Shown: in pieces, positions 12,873 through 22,023 of the stretch
Layout: every line of letters starts with the position of its first letter
Position numbering within the stretch: the first letter of the stretch is position 1
Assembly (NCBI GenBank): GCA_039714075.1
Contig: JBDLKA010000055.1
Coordinates: forward strand, 1-23,318
Reading direction: 5' to 3'
DNA length: 23,318 bases
Origin: Candidatus Krumholzibacteriota bacterium
GTDB lineage: Bacteria; Krumholzibacteriota; Krumholzibacteriia; LZORAL124-64-63
Position numbers and translations under genes: made by a program
Notes under the pieces: model-generated
Told to the model about the DNA's origin: nothing
What the model saw: only the letters and a program-made list of their open reading frames with translations
Database searches by the model: none

Positions 12873-15800
12873 TCAGAAAATCATTCCCAGGGCCGGCAAT
12901 TGCAGTGATTTCCAGTAGGCGGGATCGATCTTGAGGCTGACCGAGCCCCCGTCTCCGGATCGAGGCCGCACCATACCGCCGGGGCCGACACCATCGCTCA
13001 GGGACGGGCAGGACACCTCCAGCAGGGTCTCATCCCCGTCATCGGCGACAACCTTGATCTCAAGGCCCTGCCCCGCGTGGATCTTGAGGGTCTCCTTCAG
13101 GGAAACCGTACCGACCCAGCCCATGCCGGCGGGGGCCGCCAGGCCGATCTGGAAATCATCCGAACGGATCATGCTGCCGGCCGGACTTGTCCGGACCTCC
13201 AACCTGGCCCTGACCGGTTCCGTCAACCGGTCCTGATCCAGGCGGATGGTTCCCGAAAGATAATCCAGGGGCAAATGTGCCCTGAGAGCCACCAGGAGAT
13301 TATTGATGTCGGCCAGCTTCTGCGACCGCTCGGGGTCCGCGCCCAGATGATCGGTGTGCAGTGACGATATCGCCTTTGCCTGGCCGTGGAGGCTCAGCCA
13401 GGTACGGGACCAGTCCCGGCCCGCCACCGCCTCATCCTGCAACCGGGCCGCCGTCTTGCGGCATTCCAGCCATGACTTGTCGAACTTTTCCCGGGCCTTG
13501 TCGAATTCGAATTTGGCCACGGCCGACAGGTGCCCCGCCCATCGGTCCAGGAACGGAAGACCGTCCGACGTTGCCAGACTCTCCCAGACCTCCGGCGGCG
13601 GCTTGAGGTCCATGGTGATCCGGAATCCGGCCACCTGGTCCCTTACCGAACCGGTATACAAATATTCCGGTATCAGTTCGGGATCGCCCCCGTCCTTCAG
13701 GTGCAGGACAGCCGCTTCGTACCTGATCCTGGCCAGGAACTCACCATAGGCCCGGGGGTGGAAACGAACCGCCGGATTATCCTCCAGCCGGGACAGGGCA
13801 CGGGGGGATTCCGCCACCTTGGCCGCCAGCGTGACCGGCTTTTTCAGGGCCGAATACAGTTCCAGGGTACCGGTCAAAAGCCCCGGAATCCGTCCTTTGG
13901 GAAACATGACCGTCTGGGCGCGAAGATTGGTCAAAATGACCCGGATTTCCGACGACGGCCAATCCTGGTCCGCCAATCCGCGGCGGTAGGGCAGGAAGGT
14001 CTGATCCCCCCTGCGCTCGGCCTTCTTGAGCCGGACCAGGGCGAAGGCGCTGTTGGTGTAGGCCCGGGTCATCCGGCTGGCAGTCGGTGCCACCTGGCCC
14101 GCCGCCTGGCTGAGCGCTTTTTCCCATTCCCGTGAATAGGTTGAAGCTTCGAAAAGTGTCAACAGCAGGGCCATCCCGGACACGTGACCCCGGGTCTGGT
14201 CCAGGACCTGCTTGGCCTCGAGGGTTCCCAGGTCACGCCGGACATCCTGGAGAACGCCCTTGCCCACCCGGGACAACGAGTCCCGGCGGGCAATGACGGC
14301 CTGATCGGAAAGGGTGGAAATGTCCCGCCAGAAGACCCCCGCGGCCAGGGAATACCAAGCCAGTTCCAGTCGGGTCAATTCGTTTTCCAGGACCAGCCCC
14401 TGGTCGGCCAGGGATTGCAACCTCTGCGCTTCACGATCCGGCCGGCTGGCCTGCTGAATGCCGTCGGCCGCCAGTTTGGCGAACAGTTCCACCTGTTGGT
14501 TCAACGGCTGCACCGCCAGGTCCCGCAGATTGGCCAGGGCCTTGTGCCTTCCCTTGTCGACGGAAGGGTTCAACCCCTTGCCGGAGTTGGTCAACAATTT
14601 CAACTGGCGCCCGTAGACCTCGCCGACATCGACGACTTCCAGCAGGGTGGCGGCACGTTCGGTCCTGGGTTTTTCTCCCATCAAACCCTGAAGGTTGGCC
14701 CACTCCAGGCTTTCGGCGAGGGTCCTGCCCTCTTTCCACATCAGACCCGCAGTGCCTGCCAGAGCCAGGATGAGCACCAGGACGGCAACACGCACGGCAT
14801 TGGCTCGGGGAAACCTGCGGCCTCTTGATTTGGTCTTCGGATTGGGGAATTTCCGCACCAAGGGGCTGGGCTTTTCGGGTTTCGGGCGGACATTCGACCT
14901 GGCAGGCACAGGACTCGGGCCAGGGCCCGGGGAACCGGCCTGGGATGCGTCCGGCGCCTGCCAACGGGTCCTGGAGGGTTTCGACCTGGGCAGCGAGGCC
15001 TGGAGCGAATCCAGGGCCAGCGGTGGTTCCTGCCTGTCCCGCGAAGAACCCTGCACCGGCATGGCCGCCGAAACGGTTTCCTTGCGCAGATTGTCCTGTA
15101 AATCAGGGGTGGGCCTGGAATGAACCTGTTGCCGCTGACTTGTCCTGGAGACCCCGGCCAGATCACCAGCGGCAAGATATTTGCGGATCTCCTCGATGTA
15201 GTTGTCGACTCCCTTGACGTTGTCCCCGGCCAACCAGGCCATCATCATTCTCTGCCAGCCGGCGAAGACACATCCTTCGGACTCCACGCCCGCCAGGGTG
15301 TAGTTATTGGCTTCATTGGGCGCGAAAGAGGTGAAGCGCAGTTTTTTCCGGGCCTTTTCGGGCATGCAGGCGATGATCAGGGCCAGGCACCGGTCACTTT
15401 GTGCATTGGCCTGTTCGATGGGCATCAACAACTTGCCTTCGGCGATGAGTTTGACCACCGCTTCATCGACAAGTCCGATGTCGCTCTCGTTGGGGGCCGG
15501 ATCGACCAGGGGTCGGGTGGAATCGTAATCGATTTCGGCCCTCTGCAATTTTACCTGGGGATTCCATTCGTCGCAAAAGTCCACCGCCTGGGCCACGGCG
15601 AAGGGATTGCGCAGGAACGTGGCGTACGACCCCTCGGACAGAACCACGGCGTGGAAAAGCGGGTTCAAGCCCCGGCCGGCGCGGATGACCGTGAAAAGGC
15701 GGCCGGGGATCGCGCGTATGGTCGAAGTCAAACTGAAGGACATCAGCGCGGGTTGTTCCAGGCCCAGCGGGGGCGGCGGACCCCAGTTGTCGCACAAGCG

Positions 15801-15914
15801 GACTATTTCAGCGGCGGCTTTGTCTCCCATGCCCGAAGAACTCGCCAGGACCGACTTGCTCGGTTTGTCGTCCTTTAAATTGACCCCGTAAAGCAACTGT
15901 TCGATGAAAGGCAT
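12873..15914 (-). CDS. Large bitopic membrane protein with GAP1-N2/GAP1-M-like N-terminal region, Pro-rich linker, one TM helix and a helical C-terminal region
   Basis: 1013-aa ORF with GAGG RBS. The N-terminus 'EQLLYG…VLASSSG…WGP…FLRNPF' and 'MPEKARKKLRFTSF' recall GTPase-associated protein 1 domains (pattern recognition only). TM segment AVRVAVLVLILALAGTAGLMW. Confidence 0.6.
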   Translation of the reverse strand: MPFIEQLLYGVNLKDDKPSKSVLASSSGMGDKAAAEIVRLCDNWGPPPPLGLEQPALMSFSLTSTIRAIPGRLFTVIRAGRGLNPLFHAVVLSEGSYATFLRNPFAVAQAVDFCDEWNPQVKLQRAEIDYDSTRPLVDPAPNESDIGLVDEAVVKLIAEGKLLMPIEQANAQSDRCLALIIACMPEKARKKLRFTSFAPNEANNYTLAGVESEGCVFAGWQRMMMAWLAGDNVKGVDNYIEEIRKYLAAGDLAGVSRTSQRQQVHSRPTPDLQDNLRKETVSAAMPVQGSSRDRQEPPLALDSLQASLPRSKPSRTRWQAPDASQAGSPGPGPSPVPARSNVRPKPEKPSPLVRKFPNPKTKSRGRRFPRANAVRVAVLVLILALAGTAGLMWKEGRTLAESLEWANLQGLMGEKPRTERAATLLEVVDVGEVYGRQLKLLTNSGKGLNPSVDKGRHKALANLRDLAVQPLNQQVELFAKLAADGIQQASRPDREAQRLQSLADQGLVLENELTRLELAWYSLAAGVFWRDISTLSDQAVIARRDSLSRVGKGVLQDVRRDLGTLEAKQVLDQTRGHVSGMALLLTLFEASTYSREWEKALSQAAGQVAPTASRMTRAYTNSAFALVRLKKAERRGDQTFLPYRRGLADQDWPSSEIRVILTNLRAQTVMFPKGRIPGLLTGTLELYSALKKPVTLAAKVAESPRALSRLEDNPAVRFHPRAYGEFLARIRYEAAVLHLKDGGDPELIPEYLYTGSVRDQVAGFRITMDLKPPPEVWESLATSDGLPFLDRWAGHLSAVAKFEFDKAREKFDKSWLECRKTAARLQDEAVAGRDWSRTWLSLHGQAKAISSLHTDHLGADPERSQKLADINNLLVALRAHLPLDYLSGTIRLDQDRLTEPVRARLEVRTSPAGSMIRSDDFQIGLAAPAGMGWVGTVSLKETLKIHAGQGLEIKVVADDGDETLLEVSCPSLSDGVGPGGMVRPRSGDGGSVSLKIDPAYWKSLQLPALGMIF

Positions 15915-16016: not shown

Positions 16017-16051
16017 AAAAAACCGGCCTCTCCTGTTACGGGAGAGGCCGG
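16017..16051 (-). terminator. Rho-independent terminator after the cytochrome c/b gene
   Basis: CCGGCCTCTCC-tgttacg-GGAGAGGCCGG 11-bp stem with A6 on the left, giving U6 on the minus strand. Confidence 0.85.
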
Positions 16052-16073: not shown

Positions 16074-17987
16074 TCAGATGTCCCTTTCCAGGCCCAGACG
16101 TTTGACCTTGTCCACGTTGCCCGGGGATTGGGCCGCGGGGTGTTCCGTTTCGAACATTTCCTGGGGCATTTTACCCGTCAACCACGAGGGATTCATGGGG
16201 TACACGTGGGGATTGAACATGACCCCGTACATGTGCCAGATCAGAATGGCCAGGAACGCCAGCCAGGCCTCGTAGTAGTGGATGACCAGGAAGACCTCCA
16301 TGACACCCTTGCCGATGTAGGCGGTCAGGGGCTTTTCGAACCACATGGCCAGACCGGTCAGGACCATGACCACCGTCCCCCAGATCAGGGCCCAGTACTC
16401 GGCCTTTTCCACGAAGGAGAAGCGCCTCATCTGGGGATGTTCGTCGGTCCGCCCCAGGTTGTACATGAACATGCCCCAGACCTGTTTGGCATCGTTCCAG
16501 TTCGGTGCGATGTCCCTCAGGAAGATCCGGCCCTTGACCGTCACCAGATAGCCCAGGTGCCACAGGGAACCGAGGATCATCACCACGGCGGCCACGCGGT
16601 GGATCATGCCGCGCACGAACGCGCCTCCTTCGTGCCCGAAGATCATCTTGGCCCACCAGGCGTCGTAGAAGCGCAGTGAGAAACCGGTGATGACCAGGAC
16701 CGAGAAGGAAACGGCCAGGACCGTATGCTGGACCACCTCGTCGGCCTCCATGCGCCGCACCTGCTTTTTCCGCAGGACGTTGCGCACCTGGCGCAGCCAG
16801 TCCAGGAAACAGTAGACAACCATGCCGCCGATGATCAGCAGGATCATGACCAGGTAGATGGTCCGGACGTAGTAGGGCCAACCCTCGGCCACACCGGTGA
16901 CCGGCTCGTGGATCTTGGTTTTGGCCGCCTTTTCGGCGGACATCCCGTGGTGACAGTGACCGCAGGTTTCCACCAGGTTGGAGGCCGCAACCGAAGAGCG
17001 CGGATCGTCCGAAGGCAGAACCATGTGGGCGGCGTGGCAGGACGAGCAGTTGGCCACCGTCTGGTCGCCGGCACGGCTTTTCAGGCCATGATAGGAATCG
17101 ACGTAGGACTGCAGCCTGCCGGAGGGCAGGTCGTATTTTTCATTCAGCTTGGCCGAATCATGGCAGGGAGAACAGGTGGCCTCGGCCACGCGGAAGGGGC
17201 TGACCGGCGAGCGGGGATCGTCCGTGGCCAGGATCCCGTGCTCCCCGTGGCAGGTGGTGCAGGTGGGTGAGTCGACCTCGCCCCGGGCTACCAGTTCCCC
17301 GTGGATACCCTCTTCGAATTCCTTCTTGATCGTGCTGTGACACTTGCCGCAGGTCTTGGAAATATTGAAGAAGTTGATGGTCGATTCGATGTTGCCCGGA
17401 GGCAGGATCCGGTGGGCGGTACCCCCGCTGGAGTGGCAATCGTTGCAGGAGGCCGCGGTATCGACGCCGCCGGCGGTAGCCGTACCGTGCACGCCCTTCT
17501 GGTACACCTCGATGGGGTGCTTGAATTTGATGTTCAGATCGGCCAGGAAATCCTGATTCTCGTGACAGGATCCGCAGGTTGCCGGCAGGTTCGAGGCGTG
17601 CACCATGGATTCGGAATCCGTATGGGGCAGGATGTTGTGGCTGCCGTGGCATTCCTGGCAGGTGGGAACATCGGGTGAAACGCCGACAGTCCCGCGACCG
17701 TGCTGCTTATAGACTTCGACGGTTTCTTCGTGGCAAACACCGCAATCGGGTTTGGCCAGTGCCGCAGCATGGGGAACCTTGTGGATGTCGATATGGCAAT
17801 CCGTGCAGGAAAAATCCTCGTGGATGCTGCCACGCAGATCCTCCGTGGTCACCTCCGAGGGAACCCCACCGGTATTGGTATGACAGTCGGCGCAGACTTC
17901 ATCGGGGAAATCTCCGGCGAATGCCAGGGGGACCACGGCGACAAATGCCAGAAGCACCGCGAGGATTTCAATCCTTGCTCGTGTCAT
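16074..17987 (-). CDS. CbcL-like inner-membrane protein: periplasmic 11-heme cytochrome c fused to an FdnI/HydC-type di-heme cytochrome b domain
   Basis: The likely start is ATG 17987 (MTRARIEILAVLLAFVAVVPLAFA signal peptide; 637 aa). I count 11 CxxCH motifs: CADCH, CTDCH, CGVCH, CQECH, CGSCH, CNDCH, CGKCH, CTTCH, CSPCH, CSSCH, CGHCH. Five TM helices follow, with candidate heme-b His ligands (QH, IHR, IHY, WHMY) and the EKAEYWAL motif. Confidence 0.9.
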   Translation of the reverse strand: MTRARIEILAVLLAFVAVVPLAFAGDFPDEVCADCHTNTGGVPSEVTTEDLRGSIHEDFSCTDCHIDIHKVPHAAALAKPDCGVCHEETVEVYKQHGRGTVGVSPDVPTCQECHGSHNILPHTDSESMVHASNLPATCGSCHENQDFLADLNIKFKHPIEVYQKGVHGTATAGGVDTAASCNDCHSSGGTAHRILPPGNIESTINFFNISKTCGKCHSTIKKEFEEGIHGELVARGEVDSPTCTTCHGEHGILATDDPRSPVSPFRVAEATCSPCHDSAKLNEKYDLPSGRLQSYVDSYHGLKSRAGDQTVANCSSCHAAHMVLPSDDPRSSVAASNLVETCGHCHHGMSAEKAAKTKIHEPVTGVAEGWPYYVRTIYLVMILLIIGGMVVYCFLDWLRQVRNVLRKKQVRRMEADEVVQHTVLAVSFSVLVITGFSLRFYDAWWAKMIFGHEGGAFVRGMIHRVAAVVMILGSLWHLGYLVTVKGRIFLRDIAPNWNDAKQVWGMFMYNLGRTDEHPQMRRFSFVEKAEYWALIWGTVVMVLTGLAMWFEKPLTAYIGKGVMEVFLVIHYYEAWLAFLAILIWHMYGVMFNPHVYPMNPSWLTGKMPQEMFETEHPAAQSPGNVDKVKRLGLERDI

Positions 17988-18652
17988 TTTCCTGAAACCT
18001 TTCCCTGAACCCCGGTGACAACAGATTCGCGGGCCCAGAATATATGCGGCATCCACCTGCCCGCGCGTTTTGGGCGCGGACAAGGTGCTGAAGCAGGCCG
18101 TCCGGTGGGCCGGATCATCGACAACCCCGCAGCCCCACCCTGCTGAAATCTTAACAGCATCCAGGCGCCACCGGTCGACCCTTTCAGTTTGGGCGACGAA
18201 ATATCCCCGTGGATATCGTGTCCCTTTCACGGCTTCAATGTTAATGGGCAGGGGGGGCAATTCCAAAAACAAAGTCCTTCAACATATTCATTTTAATTGA
18301 CTTAATCCCTATCATTTCCGTGGGCTATCCGGAATCCAACCCTTTCGGGAGGGTGAAGAGGAGTAATTGAAAGTGAATCCTCATAGTGGCAAATACATGA
18401 CATCCCTAAGGGTAAATTGTTGTAATTTCACAGCTTGAATTAAAGAATACTCTTTTTAACTCTTTTTAATGAACAAAGTTATGAAAATCTACTTGGACAC
18501 CGGGGGAAATCTTGGGCAATTTTGCCGGGAATAGTCAACCCGTCAATTGATTAACACTTTCAATCCGGTTTGGTTATTTGCTTATCAGGCCACTCCTGGT
18601 GGTTTTTCCTGACAACCTGGCCCCAACAACCCCTAAAGGTGAGGTCCGTTTC
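17988..18652. promoter_or_regulatory. Divergent, partly AT-rich control region between the cytochrome c/b gene and the decaheme-porin operon
   Basis: 665-nt non-coding gap, visibly AT-rich at about 18230-18590 against a GC-rich background. Contains the tandem 10-bp repeat ACTCTTTTTA x2 (18449-18468). Confidence 0.65.
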
Positions 18653-19648
18653 ATGGATCGAAGAAATTTCAGCCAGAAGACACCGGGCAGCCCGCTCCTC
18701 CTGTTGTGGGGGCTGGTTTTCTGCCTGGCATTGTCGACCGGCGCGCTTGCCCAGGCTCCTGACGACTTCGCGGGCGCCGAAGCGTGCCTGGATTGTCACG
18801 ACGACATGGCCGCCGAGTTTTCGCGCACCGTACACGGGCAGCTGGCCGATTACGAGTATCCCGGCCTGGCCGGCGGCTGCGAGTCCTGCCACGGCGCCGG
18901 CGCCGCCCACGTCGAATCCGAAGACCCGGCCGACATTTTCCTGCCCACGGCGGAGATGGGAAACGACGGCACCGATCTGTGCCTGGATTGCCACAAGACC
19001 GGGCACACCCTCAACTGGGAAATGAGCACCCACGCCGAATCCGACGTGTCCTGCCTTTCCTGCCACAAGCTGCACGACAACTCCTCCAGCCGGGCCCTGC
19101 TGAACGGCACCGAGGAAGATGTCTGCTTCACCTGCCACATGGACACCCAGAGCAAGTTCCAGCTGCCGAGCCACCACCCGGTTCGTGAAGGCTTCATGAC
19201 CTGCTCCAGCTGCCATGACGTCCACGGCAACCAGTTCCAGGAGATCGCCGCCGGCGAAACCTCCCGGGACGCCTGCCTGGTGTGCCACCAGCAGCATGCC
19301 GGTCCCTTCGTGTTCGAACATTCTCCCGTCATGGAAGACTGCATGATCTGCCATGACGTGCACGGCACCGTGGCCAACAACCTGCTCCGGCAGAACGAAC
19401 CGTTCCTCTGCCTGCAGTGCCACCAGCCGCACTTCCACAGCATTTTGACCGGGGCCGAGGGTGATTTCGGCACCCCGGGCAACGTCAGCGACAGGGACCC
19501 GGGTTACGCCGGCCTGAGCATGACTTCCCATGCCGACAGCATGAAGAAAGTGATGCTGACGAAGTGTACCCAGTGCCACCAGTCGATTCACGGAACCGAT
19601 CTGCCTTCCCAGTCCATCACGGGACAGGGCCGGGCGCTCAACCGATAA
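18653..19648 (+). CDS. MtrA/DmsE-type periplasmic decaheme c-type cytochrome
   Basis: GAGGT RBS and ATG 18653, then a signal peptide. Ten CxxCH motifs: CLDCH, CESCH, CLDCH, CLSCH, CFTCH, CSSCH, CLVCH, CMICH, CLQCH, CTQCH. MtrA hallmarks SHHPVREG, GPFVFEH.PV.EDC and a terminal IHG(T/S). Confidence 0.93.
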   Translation: MDRRNFSQKTPGSPLLLLWGLVFCLALSTGALAQAPDDFAGAEACLDCHDDMAAEFSRTVHGQLADYEYPGLAGGCESCHGAGAAHVESEDPADIFLPTAEMGNDGTDLCLDCHKTGHTLNWEMSTHAESDVSCLSCHKLHDNSSSRALLNGTEEDVCFTCHMDTQSKFQLPSHHPVREGFMTCSSCHDVHGNQFQEIAAGETSRDACLVCHQQHAGPFVFEHSPVMEDCMICHDVHGTVANNLLRQNEPFLCLQCHQPHFHSILTGAEGDFGTPGNVSDRDPGYAGLSMTSHADSMKKVMLTKCTQCHQSIHGTDLPSQSITGQGRALNR

Positions 19649-19704
19649 CCCTCACGGCGGGCCGGTCGAAGGCCGGTCGTCGAACCACTACATACGAGGT
19701 GATT

Positions 19705-21951
19705 ATGAGAACGCGAAACCTGATCATGTGCTCTGCGGTCCTGTTGATGTGCTGGACCGCTGTCAGCCTGGCTGACGAAGAGGGTGCATTCGTAGAGGGA
19801 TCCGCATCGGTCGGCGCTCACTACAGCCATTTCACCGACAACCCCGTGCGGGTCGGCGAATATGTGAACCTGAACGCCACCAAGGACCTTCAGGCGGACA
19901 TGATCCTGAACCTCTTCGGGGGTACGGACAACACTCTCTACAACATCAATCTCGATTACCGTGATGTCGCGACCAAGAGTTTCGAATTCGGGGTGGACAC
20001 GAAGAGCCTCCTGGCCGCGGATTTCCGCTACGGGTCGTTCATCCACAACCTGGATCACGACAACATGCGGAACCTGCAAGGCAAGGCCGGCGGGAAACAG
20101 GTCTACAATACCGACAACGACCCCATGGGCCGTTACTTCATGGAATACGAGCAGTTCCATGGGAACATCAAGGTGGACATGCCCTTCCTGACCGACGGCC
20201 AGGTCACCCTGGGCATGTCCGACCAGCGCAAGTCCGGTTACAAGCAGGCCATGTCCATCGACCACTGCGCCTTCTGCCATGTGGAAAGCAACGCCCAGCG
20301 CGTGGACCAGCAGACCCGGATCTGGAAGGCCGGCGCCGAGGGTTCCCTGGGTCCCGTCTCGGTGAACTACGACTTCGCCAAGACCGATTTCGTGGACAGG
20401 GCCAACGCGCCGGAGCACCGCTGGAAAACCGCGATGCATCCCGTCAAGGGCCCGATCGATCCCGTTTCCGGTCTGGATTATGTCGCCGAATTCGGCAGCC
20501 GGCTGGGTTTCCACGACGTGACCCTGCCCTATGCCCGAACCGCGGACAACGACAAGCTCAGCCACAGCGCCGGGATCAAGGTCGATCTCAAGCGGGCCGG
20601 CACCCTGAAGGGTTCCTACACGAACACCAACCGGACGAACTACCATACCGGCATCGAGGGCAAGTTCGACGCCGGAGCCCTGGGCTACGCGGTCAGGCTG
20701 ACTCCCAAAATGCGCCTGACCGGCAAGTTCCTGGCCTACGAAACCAAGGTCGACGACGCTTTCGTCGATCTGCCGCTGTTCCGTGACGGACGCGGCGCCG
20801 GCGGCCTGGACTTCGACTGGAACCGGATCTCCTCGGCCAACCGCAAGGTCTACCAGGGCGATCTGAACCTCGGATGGAAAGTGGCCAAGGGCAAGCACCT
20901 GAAGGTGAACTGGCGCTACCAGATCATCGACCGGCCGGCCATGGCCCAGAGCCAGACCAACTACGTCTTCGACGGCGCCAACGTCGGCCCTGCGGGGATC
21001 GTGGAAACGCTGCCCTCCGAGGCCTTCGAGAACAAGACAACGGTCAACCGGGTCAAGCTGCGGTACGACTCCCGCATCGGCATGAAGGGCAACTACAACC
21101 TGACCTACACCTACACCGGTGTGGACAAGCCGTTCATGAATCCCACGGCCATGTGCGAGGAAAGCCTGATCGGGACCGGCAGCGCCCATCCCGGCGGCAC
21201 GGCTGCTGGACGGTTGTACTACTTCCAGCGCGAGCGTTTCGGCAACGGGTCCAACCAGGCCAGCCAGTCCCACAAGGCAACGGGCCGGGCGTCGTTCCAG
21301 ATCACCCCCCGCACATCGATCAACGGGTTCGTGACCTACGCGCAGGACAAGAACGACGAGCTGAACATCTACCAGTACGATCGGGACTACCTCTCCCCCG
21401 GTTTGAACCTGTGGACCGCCCCGGCGGACCAGATCCTGTTCACGCTGGGCTGGACCTACAACAAGGTCAAGTCGAACGAGAACATCTGTATCCCGATATT
21501 CGATGGCTGAGCGGGTCACATCGAAGGCTCCGGTTCGGAGCTTCCCGAGCATTACGACTCCGTCAGCACGCAGTCCGATTACACGACCGACACGAACGTG
21601 TTCTTCATGAACGCCAACCTGACCGCCACGGAGAAGCTCAGCTTCTTCGCCGAAGGTGTCTACTCCCTGTCCAAGGGCAGTGCGACTTCCTGGGGGGACG
21701 TGACCCCGGAAGAGGATCACCATTTCGCAGTCAGTACCCCGGACTACGACTTCTCGAAGGTCAACGAATACAGCGACCTCGAGTACACGCAGCTGGAAGG
21801 TACCCTGGGCGTGAACTACAAGCTGGACAAGAGAGCCACGGTTTACGGCTCGGTCAACCTGATGAAACTCCAGGATGACCAGGAGTACGTCTACGGCGAC
21901 CTGACCGGCATGATCGTCACCTACGCCACCGGTATGACCGTGGGCTTCTAG
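19705..21951 (+). CDS. MtrB-position outer-membrane beta-barrel protein with one CxxCH and a predicted selenocysteine (748 aa, U602)
   Basis: GAGGT RBS, ATG 19705 and a signal peptide, followed by alternating beta-strand patterns and CAFCH at 20266-20280. TGA 21508-21510 is followed by an open frame continuous with the 21598-21951 ORF, which ends in the beta-signal-like YATGMTVGF. A SECIS-like hairpin follows the TGA. Confidence 0.85.
21523..21544 (+). promoter_or_regulatory. Bacterial SECIS-like hairpin of the beta-barrel gene
   Basis: GAAG(g)CTCC-GGTTC-GGAGCTTC stem-loop starting 12 nt after the TGA. The apical GG begins 21 nt after the TGA, the same offset as in the Rdx gene. Confidence 0.75.
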
Positions 21952-21994: not shown

Positions 21995-22023
21995 GAGGGG
22001 GGCCATCACGGCCCCCCTCTTCC
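21995..22023. terminator. Terminator hairpin between the convergent porin gene and pstB
   Basis: GAGGGGGGCC-atcac-GGCCCCCCTC perfect 10-bp stem followed by TTT and a pyrimidine run. Confidence 0.75.

Follow-up and report, generated by a model that had tools for sequence, protein, structure and literature searches.

A candidate OmcK/OmcL-type porin:cytochrome pair with a predicted surface heme and selenocysteine, encoded beside a CbcL-like cytochrome gene in a Krumholzibacteriota genome

The locus described here occupies positions 16,074 to 21,951 of a 23,318-nucleotide (nt) stretch of DNA from Candidatus Krumholzibacteriota bacterium (contig JBDLKA010000055.1 of assembly GCA_039714075.1; the whole stretch is hereafter called the window). 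It encodes a decaheme cytochrome and a beta-barrel protein of the OmcK/OmcL (GSU2203/GSU2204) family, head-to-head with a gene for an inner-membrane cytochrome of the CbcL/MtrH/MtoC type (cbcL below). We propose that the decaheme protein lies within the barrel, that the barrel carries a heme and a selenocysteine (Sec) of its own at the cell surface, and that the pair is fed by the CbcL/MtoC-type cytochrome acting as a shared component; taken as a whole, this model has in our judgement an even chance of being correct. The genes, motifs, family memberships, conservation and linkage pattern reported below are observations, and the fold and loop topology of the barrel are predictions. The main features, with protein lengths in amino acids (aa), are:

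16074..17987, minus strand: CbcL/MtrH/MtoC-type inner-membrane cytochrome gene; 637 aa, with a signal peptide, 11 CxxCH motifs and then five hydrophobic helices with a cytochrome b561 domain
18653..19648, plus strand: decaheme cytochrome gene of the GSU2203/OmcK family, MtrA-like; 331 aa, 10 CxxCH motifs
19705..21951, plus strand: barrel gene of the GSU2204/OmcL family; 748 aa with a single TGA read through; predicted 26 strands and MtrB fold
20266..20280, plus strand: CAFCH heme-c motif (barrel residues 188-192); predicted location, tip of extracellular loop 4
21154..21156, plus strand: barrel C484, likely in a disulfide with C595; lies in predicted extracellular loop 9
21487..21489, plus strand: barrel C595, on the extracellular side where predicted strand 21 ends; only 37/101 homologues have it
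21508..21510, plus strand: in-frame TGA, read as selenocysteine (U602), in predicted extracellular loop 11
21525..21543, plus strand: hairpin resembling a selenocysteine insertion sequence (SECIS), 17 nt past the TGA

An earlier note on this DNA had described the three genes as a divergent unit with 22 c-type heme motifs, including a decaheme and a beta-barrel, with MtrA inserted in MtrB as the known parallel; the positions and the counts (11 + 10 + 1 CxxCH) agree with our analysis, as does the resemblance to MtrA and MtrB. The barrel belongs to NCBIfam family NF041027 ("GSU2204 family CXXCH-containing (seleno)protein"), scoring 554.8 bits against a cut-off of 350, and matches no Pfam family. 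The decaheme protein belongs to NF041028, the GSU2203 family (374.3 bits, cut-off 325), and also exceeds the cut-off of TIGR03508 (237.5 versus 192.2). It matches MtrA (6r2q_A, E 3.9e-38) with collinear hemes, and the barrel profile matches MtrB (6r2q_B, E 6e-9) at about 10% identity. The AlphaFold2 model of the barrel (predicted local distance difference test score, pLDDT, 91.6) contains 26 strands in which short turns alternate with long loops, and its top Foldseek match is again MtrB (E 1.6e-20). The last five predicted strands, which follow the U602 site, complete the barrel; confidence is lowest in the Sec loop (pLDDT 58-69). When the short turns are taken as periplasmic, as in MtrB (PMC7198977), four features are predicted to be extracellular: the CxxCH motif, which lies at the loop 4 tip; C484, within loop 9; C595, where strand 21 ends on the outer side; and U602, within loop 11. 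An MtrAB-type conduit architecture is highly probable, and the decaheme protein likely sits inside the predicted barrel, as judged by homology and gene adjacency. An additional decaheme histidine was considered as a ligand for the barrel heme; H260 is gained where the last histidine of MtrA is lost, so the total is unchanged.

The in-frame TGA is very likely a selenocysteine codon, as the earlier note had read it. Barrel homologues from the phylum form 31 distinct rows, including the window and one broken remnant, and in all 29 rows that reach the site the TGA is present and followed by an open, conserved frame. Distant homologues were collected by a search against 50%-identity representatives; from the best 150 of 304 hits, the 105 of at least 520 aa were kept and four that did not cover both cysteine sites were dropped, leaving 101 sequences with 22-61% identity to the barrel. 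At the position of residue 602, 92 of these 101 (drawn from the best 150 of 304) stop exactly before the codon, three have cysteine and six have neither; one Cys-type homologue is from Desulfuromonas thiophila. The source genome contains a tRNA-Sec, and selA, selB and selD score above their cut-offs. The hairpin about 17 nt downstream of the TGA folds in 31/31 loci. In the 25 rows where it is in register, five of its eight base pairs can form in every row, and at one pair both bases have changed in six rows; the stem overlaps conserved codons, which weighs against the SECIS reading. As judged from these alignments, the constants of the barrel family are CxxCH and Sec/Cys: the heme motif is kept in 100/101 near-full distant homologues, and C188, C191 and H192 are present in 119/119 near-full rows. 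One barrel homologue (L049, in genome G090) has an internal TAG at codon 305 besides the conserved TGA, which may reflect a sequencing error or recent inactivation.

The two other cysteines of the barrel appear to have a different role from that of Sec. In the earlier note, C595 and U602 were cast as a C-x6-U pair that, with the heme, would form the terminal redox site supplied by the barrel; C484, a further conserved cysteine, was overlooked. Both C595 and U602 occur in 27/29 phylum rows, and among the distant homologues C595 is present in 37/101 and missing in 64/101. Its occurrence follows that of C484: 26 of the 101 have both cysteines, 60 have neither and 15 are discordant (odds ratio 35, kin not independent). 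Mutual information was computed over 119 near-full barrel rows, and couplings among the invariant columns C188, C191, H192, G178 and G601 were set aside as artefacts. C484 and C595 are each other's best partner, ranking 7 of 140,237 pairs, and 16 of 138,135 once the 26 rows nearest the query are excluded. As a control, the top 50 include 15 pairs between strands, of which 9 join adjacent strands (baseline 9.5%). Since C595 is missing in 64/101 homologues and covaries with C484, it is probably not the partner of U602; we infer a structural C484-C595 disulfide, and a C595/U602 redox pair was rejected on these grounds. The other part of the claim stands in conditional form: the heme motif and Sec both lie on predicted extracellular loops, and the barrel could therefore supply the terminal site.

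Further couplings link loops 3, 4, 5, 7, 9 and 11 (E485-R509, K127-E485, Y506-D600, K131-F599 and H187-R266), and those that involve the Sec loop connect it to loops 9, 3 and 4 (Y506-D600, K131-F599 and, more weakly, H187-F599). This pattern suggests a lid over the pore that would bring the Sec loop towards the heme loop. H192 of the CxxCH motif is the sole invariant histidine of the barrel, the next best being conserved in 96-97 of 119 rows, and therefore Sec/Cys is the most constant candidate for a second heme ligand. We lean slightly towards the barrel heme and Sec forming one site.

The third gene product has the layout of the CbcL/MtrH/MtoC family, and its putative activity is quinol oxidation or quinone reduction. 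It matches PF01292 (55.6 bits, cut-off 30.1), and its residues H421, H463, H477, H570 and H585 are invariant in 37/37 homologues. The 11 CxxCH motifs of its N-terminal domain fall inside the range of 3-23 of the family, and hydropathy indicates a signal peptide and five helices, the family usually having six transmembrane helices and in some members five or four. No solved structure was matched by sequence. The family was defined by Zhong and Shi and is clustered with mtrAB or mtoAB in several species (PMC6295460). A 19-heme paralogue is encoded elsewhere in the source genome (C16:9815-12712, L093), and it is this form that stands head-to-head with the OmcKL pair in three genomes (G118-G120; L047, L050 and L051). 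A tetraheme cytochrome gene follows cbcL in four pair-bearing genomes and three others, and has a homologue on contig C60 of the source genome.

The linkage of the three genes, for which the earlier note had proposed a synteny survey, is real in this lineage. NF041027 was found above its cut-off in 27 of the 208 genomes of the phylum, five of them with the locus at a contig edge. The pair stands head-to-head with a CbcL-type gene in 20 of the 22 evaluable genomes (the 11-heme orthologue in 17 and the 19-heme paralogue in three), an arrangement that extends to barrels of about 40% identity; the other two have neither. The survey started from cbcL gave the other half of the picture. Orthologues with at least 54% identity over at least 575 residues occur in 73 genomes, many of them incomplete, of which 23 have a barrel above the cut-off, three a partial or remnant barrel and 47 no strong barrel match. 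Twenty cbcL loci were fetched, picked from genomes without a linked full barrel, and in eight of these the pair is missing and cbcL is separated from pstB by 420-640 bp. At L088, a different, non-Sec decaheme/barrel cluster stands beside cbcL. Conversely, the pair is found without cbcL in two genomes (G164 and G176). Outside the phylum the survey was thin, a single-protein metagenome scan that gave four distant loci; the three with enough upstream DNA have the order LysR-decaheme-barrel, without cbcL. The LysR genes that precede the pair there (L065, L066 and L068) score best against the selenium-metabolism LysR family NF040786, below its cut-off (172-201 versus 250 bits). On a quick tree of 40 cbcL rows, presence of the pair changes eight times, at least six of these changes being forced by well-supported branches, which fits repeated loss of the pair. 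Loss through the Sec machinery was rejected as the cause, because selA is above its cut-off in 88/91 family genomes.

The absence of a strong barrel match in 47/73 genomes, the pstB neighbours, the L088 cluster, the pairs without cbcL and the eight changes on the tree would also be expected if cbcL were a mere chromosomal neighbour that feeds a general periplasmic cytochrome pool (for example, the cluster on contig C64 of the source genome) and has no special tie to OmcKL. We regard this explanation as rather unlikely; several observations speak against it. Besides the head-to-head arrangement in 20/22 genomes, barrel remnants adjoin cbcL in two genomes of different families (L087 in G145 and L064 in G200), the shared intergenic region holds a conserved direct repeat, and the distances among barrels correlate with those among cbcL genes (Spearman 0.78 over 17 loci, kin not independent). 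Both remnants consist of the C-terminal part of the barrel gene with the TGA and hairpin still in place, and the decaheme gene is gone. The CbcL-like protein likely serves as a shared quinol hub, with the pair as an ancestral neighbour of its gene, and not as a dedicated third part.

The repeat (TGACA-N6-TGACA, one mismatch allowed) is situated between the cbcL and decaheme genes in 15/16 linked loci, compared with 77/2000 shuffles, and is carried by 8/9 loci that were not used in its derivation. Besides the window, it occurs at L004-L008, L013, L014, L045, L048, L049, L053-L055 and L057. It is absent from two loci of the same genus that lost the pair and is present at L071. We take the repeat to resemble a PhoB/OmpR-type box, and pst genes adjoin the locus. 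In the window it is found at:

18387..18402, no strand assigned: TGACA-N6-TGACA direct repeat with an 11-bp period and one mismatch, in the divergent intergenic region; candidate regulator site

In the proposed mechanism, electrons would pass from menaquinol to the b hemes and then to the 11 c hemes of the CbcL-like protein, and from there, probably through a soluble periplasmic shuttle, to the decaheme protein in the barrel. The shuttle is likely because MtrA reaches only about 30 Å into a periplasm about 200 Å wide (PMC7096707), the ten MtrA hemes spanning about 80 Å (PMC7198977). In Shewanella, heme A10 passes electrons to MtrC, and MtrAB alone reduces soluble acceptors only (PMC7198977); here the decaheme protein would instead deliver them to the loop 4 heme of the barrel, as a substitute for MtrC, and this heme would pass them to Sec602 on loop 11. 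Sec602 may be the distal ligand of the barrel heme or a nucleophile beside it, and the C484-C595 disulfide would pin its loop in the lid formed by loops 3, 4, 5, 7, 9 and 11. The most likely substrate class in this model is polysulfide or elemental sulfur (S0), or other S/Se bonds, reduced at the cell surface. The best precedent is MccSep, in which Sec beside a His/Cys-ligated heme reduces polysulfide and selenite (PMC13510729). The Cys-type homologue from Desulfuromonas thiophila and the below-cut-off LysR matches to a selenium-metabolism family also count in favour of the model. The inferred parts of the model are the insertion of the decaheme protein, the heme-Sec contact, the electron direction and the substrate. 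An outward direction seems to us a little better supported than the reverse, and a chalcogen substrate is put forward tentatively, with less than even confidence.

Several observations weigh against this model. With a rank of 143-281, the H187-F599 coupling is modest, and the effective number of sequences behind it is about 50 (kin not independent); loops 4 and 11 are 14 strands apart, so that their contact needs both to be folded over the pore. Four histidines conserved at 68-82% (H114, H118, H245 and H287) could serve as alternative distal ligands. Neither Sec nor Cys is aligned at the site in 6/101 homologues, including one from Thermotomaculum hydrothermale. The sequences of CbcL/MtoC proteins hold no feature that tells the electron direction (PMC6295460). 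Published expression data point to iron oxides and electron uptake, not to sulfur: GSU2203/2204 are up 1.5-2.7-fold on hematite and magnetite (PMC4070692), and in HotSeep-1 growing with ANME as its partner the expression of OmcKL exceeds that of OetABI 4-fold (PMC10553843). MccSep was not found in the source genome and is present in 9/91 family genomes; co-occurrence of the pair with MccSep was examined as a possible link and none was seen. Four barrels with neither Sec nor Cys at the site (P0066, P0097, P0126 and P0132, one of them from T. hydrothermale) are full-length and keep CxxCH, and such proteins would be useful natural controls for the role of Sec.

The same conduit and barrel heme could also be used in another way, in which Sec would do no more than tune or cap the terminal heme, and the conduit would serve generic electron exchange with extracellular iron oxides, humics or partner cells; flow could then be inward, as in MtoAB with MtoC, and the CbcL-like protein would reduce quinone. 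This alternative, which we consider doubtful, agrees with the lack of MtrC in the cluster, as in the mtoABC clusters of Fe(II) oxidisers (PMC6295460), with the induction of omcK and GSU2204 on hematite and magnetite (PMC4070692), with the high expression of OmcKL in an electron-accepting ANME partner (PMC10553843), and with the 6/101 homologues that lack Sec or Cys. However, Sec or Cys is kept in about 95/101 homologues across 22-61% identity, which suits a chemical role. Selenocysteine is, moreover, usually catalytic. In MccSep its replacement by cysteine (U325C) abolishes activity (PMC13510729).

Much less probable is the form of the model given in the earlier note, namely a dedicated, complete and self-contained three-gene wire with direct contact between the CbcL-like and decaheme proteins and a C595/U602 thiol/selenol pair. 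The three-gene synteny conserved in the lineage, the joint presence of C595 and U602 in 27/29 phylum rows, and the paired use of a Cys and a Sec by MccSep (PMC13510729) speak for it. Against it, C595 is present in only 37/101 homologues and tracks C484, and cbcL is divergent, is retained in genomes without the pair and does not accompany the pair at three distant loci; with the dimensions of about 200, 30 and 80 Å given above, the 11-heme domain is also probably too short to span the periplasm alone. That the TGA is a true stop and the barrel gene split or broken is extremely improbable: most homologues do end at this codon in databases, and the 63-nt segment after the TGA is no more stable than shuffles (z -1.28), but the codon stands at the same place before an open, conserved frame in 29/29 rows, full-length Cys-type homologues exist, the final five predicted strands complete the barrel, and selA, selB, selD and tRNA-Sec are in the genome.

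At its most far-reaching, our model would make OmcL a cell-surface selenoenzyme, a porin with a covalent heme and Sec as its distal ligand, wired through OmcK and a CbcL-like quinol oxidase and reducing extracellular S0 or polysulfide without MtrC or a molybdoenzyme; this version is speculative and more probably wrong than right by a wide measure. We know of no His/Sec-ligated heme described before, although no literature search was aimed at this point. If this version is true, OmcL would be a new kind of terminal reductase.

The remaining features of the window concern the borders of the locus, which the earlier note had described as closed by terminators on both sides:

16023..16051, minus strand: intrinsic-terminator-like hairpin with an 11-bp stem and a T-run, 3' of the cytochrome b/c gene
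21995..22019, minus strand: 11-bp hairpin separating the barrel gene from pstB, which converges on it; the terminator call is for the pstB strand

The first of these closes the cytochrome b/c gene as described. The second is called for pstB and has only a weak T-tail on the barrel strand. Across the region, 12 hairpins were found compared with 7.8 +/- 2.9 in shuffles, a number not clearly above chance. Among the 13 open reading frames (ORFs) of the window that were scanned, none encodes an MtrC-like protein or a molybdoenzyme, and an MtrC/OmcA decaheme is not in the cluster, in agreement with the earlier note. A 1013-aa ORF at 12873-15914 on the minus strand has no Pfam or NCBIfam match; its N-terminus resembles GAP1-N2/GAP1-M proteins (ESM Atlas, score 0.93), and it comes after the CbcL-like gene in 14 of the 20 loci fetched for absence of a linked full barrel. 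Further multiheme genes lie elsewhere in the genome, including a second decaheme/barrel cluster (C64:234-6546, L091) without Sec and without CxxCH in the barrel. There the decaheme and barrel genes are followed by a TetR gene, a 9-CxxCH cytochrome ORF and a double-rhodanese protein, which suggests a separate sulfur-related surface conduit.

The closest known system is the OmcK/OmcL pair of Geobacter sulfurreducens (GSU2203/GSU2204). The order of decaheme and barrel is the same, both proteins encoded in the window score above the family cut-offs, and the CxxCH and Sec site are conserved. In the Krumholzibacteriota locus the pair is head-to-head with a CbcL/MtoC-type gene, and three distant loci have a LysR gene upstream instead. 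The GSU2204 family is named as a selenoprotein in a 2026 review (PMC13188914), and the pair was called the OmcKL porin:cytochrome conduit in HotSeep-1 and Seep-SRB2 by Murali et al. (PMC10553843). In that paper OmcK is called extracellular and no adjacent periplasmic cytochrome is noted; its homology to MtrA suggests to us a barrel-embedded wire, with the outer heme supplied by the barrel. Among the titles and abstracts that our literature searches brought up, none concerned the biochemistry of GSU2204/OmcL or CbcL beside OmcKL. The passages searched in PMC12133095, PMC12977616 and PMC2398784 do not mention the GSU2203/GSU2204 family, nor does the preprint of a paper by Haft, and in PMC13194489 omcK appears in a mutation table only. 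The pair thus belongs to an already catalogued, uncharacterised family, and CbcL/MtoC beside MtrAB is also published. Because the family is already catalogued, this instance is not a discovery; what is new is the genomic arrangement of a known conduit and a revised active-site model. The locus contributes, for one lineage, a connection to a cytochrome on the quinol side, together with a more precise model in which heme and Sec would form the site and C484-C595 would be structural. Since G. sulfurreducens has GSU2203/GSU2204, it permits a direct test of the OmcKL model.

MtrCAB of Shewanella (PDB 6R2Q, PMC7198977) is similar in its MtrA-like decaheme with collinear hemes and in the MtrB-like fold, predicted here with 26 strands; it differs in that our cluster has no MtrC and its barrel carries a heme motif and Sec. 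The mtoABC and mtrH-mtrAB clusters (PMC6295460) likewise combine a gene for a multiheme c and HydC/FdnI-like cytochrome b with decaheme and barrel genes. What differs here is a barrel of the Sec/heme GSU2204 type and a quinol cytochrome gene that is transcribed divergently and persists after loss of the pair. The MccSep/ExtKL polysulfide reductase of G. sulfurreducens also has Sec with a c-type heme and is a possible model for the chemistry (PMC13510729). It differs as a periplasmic five-heme tetramer with a His/Cys heme, and the barrel has no match to the MccSep family NF040886 among NCBIfam models. According to the MccSep paper, the electron route over the outer membrane to sulfur is not known (PMC13510729). 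An MtrAB-type wire terminating in a heme and Sec of the barrel itself would be a minimal two-protein terminal reductase.

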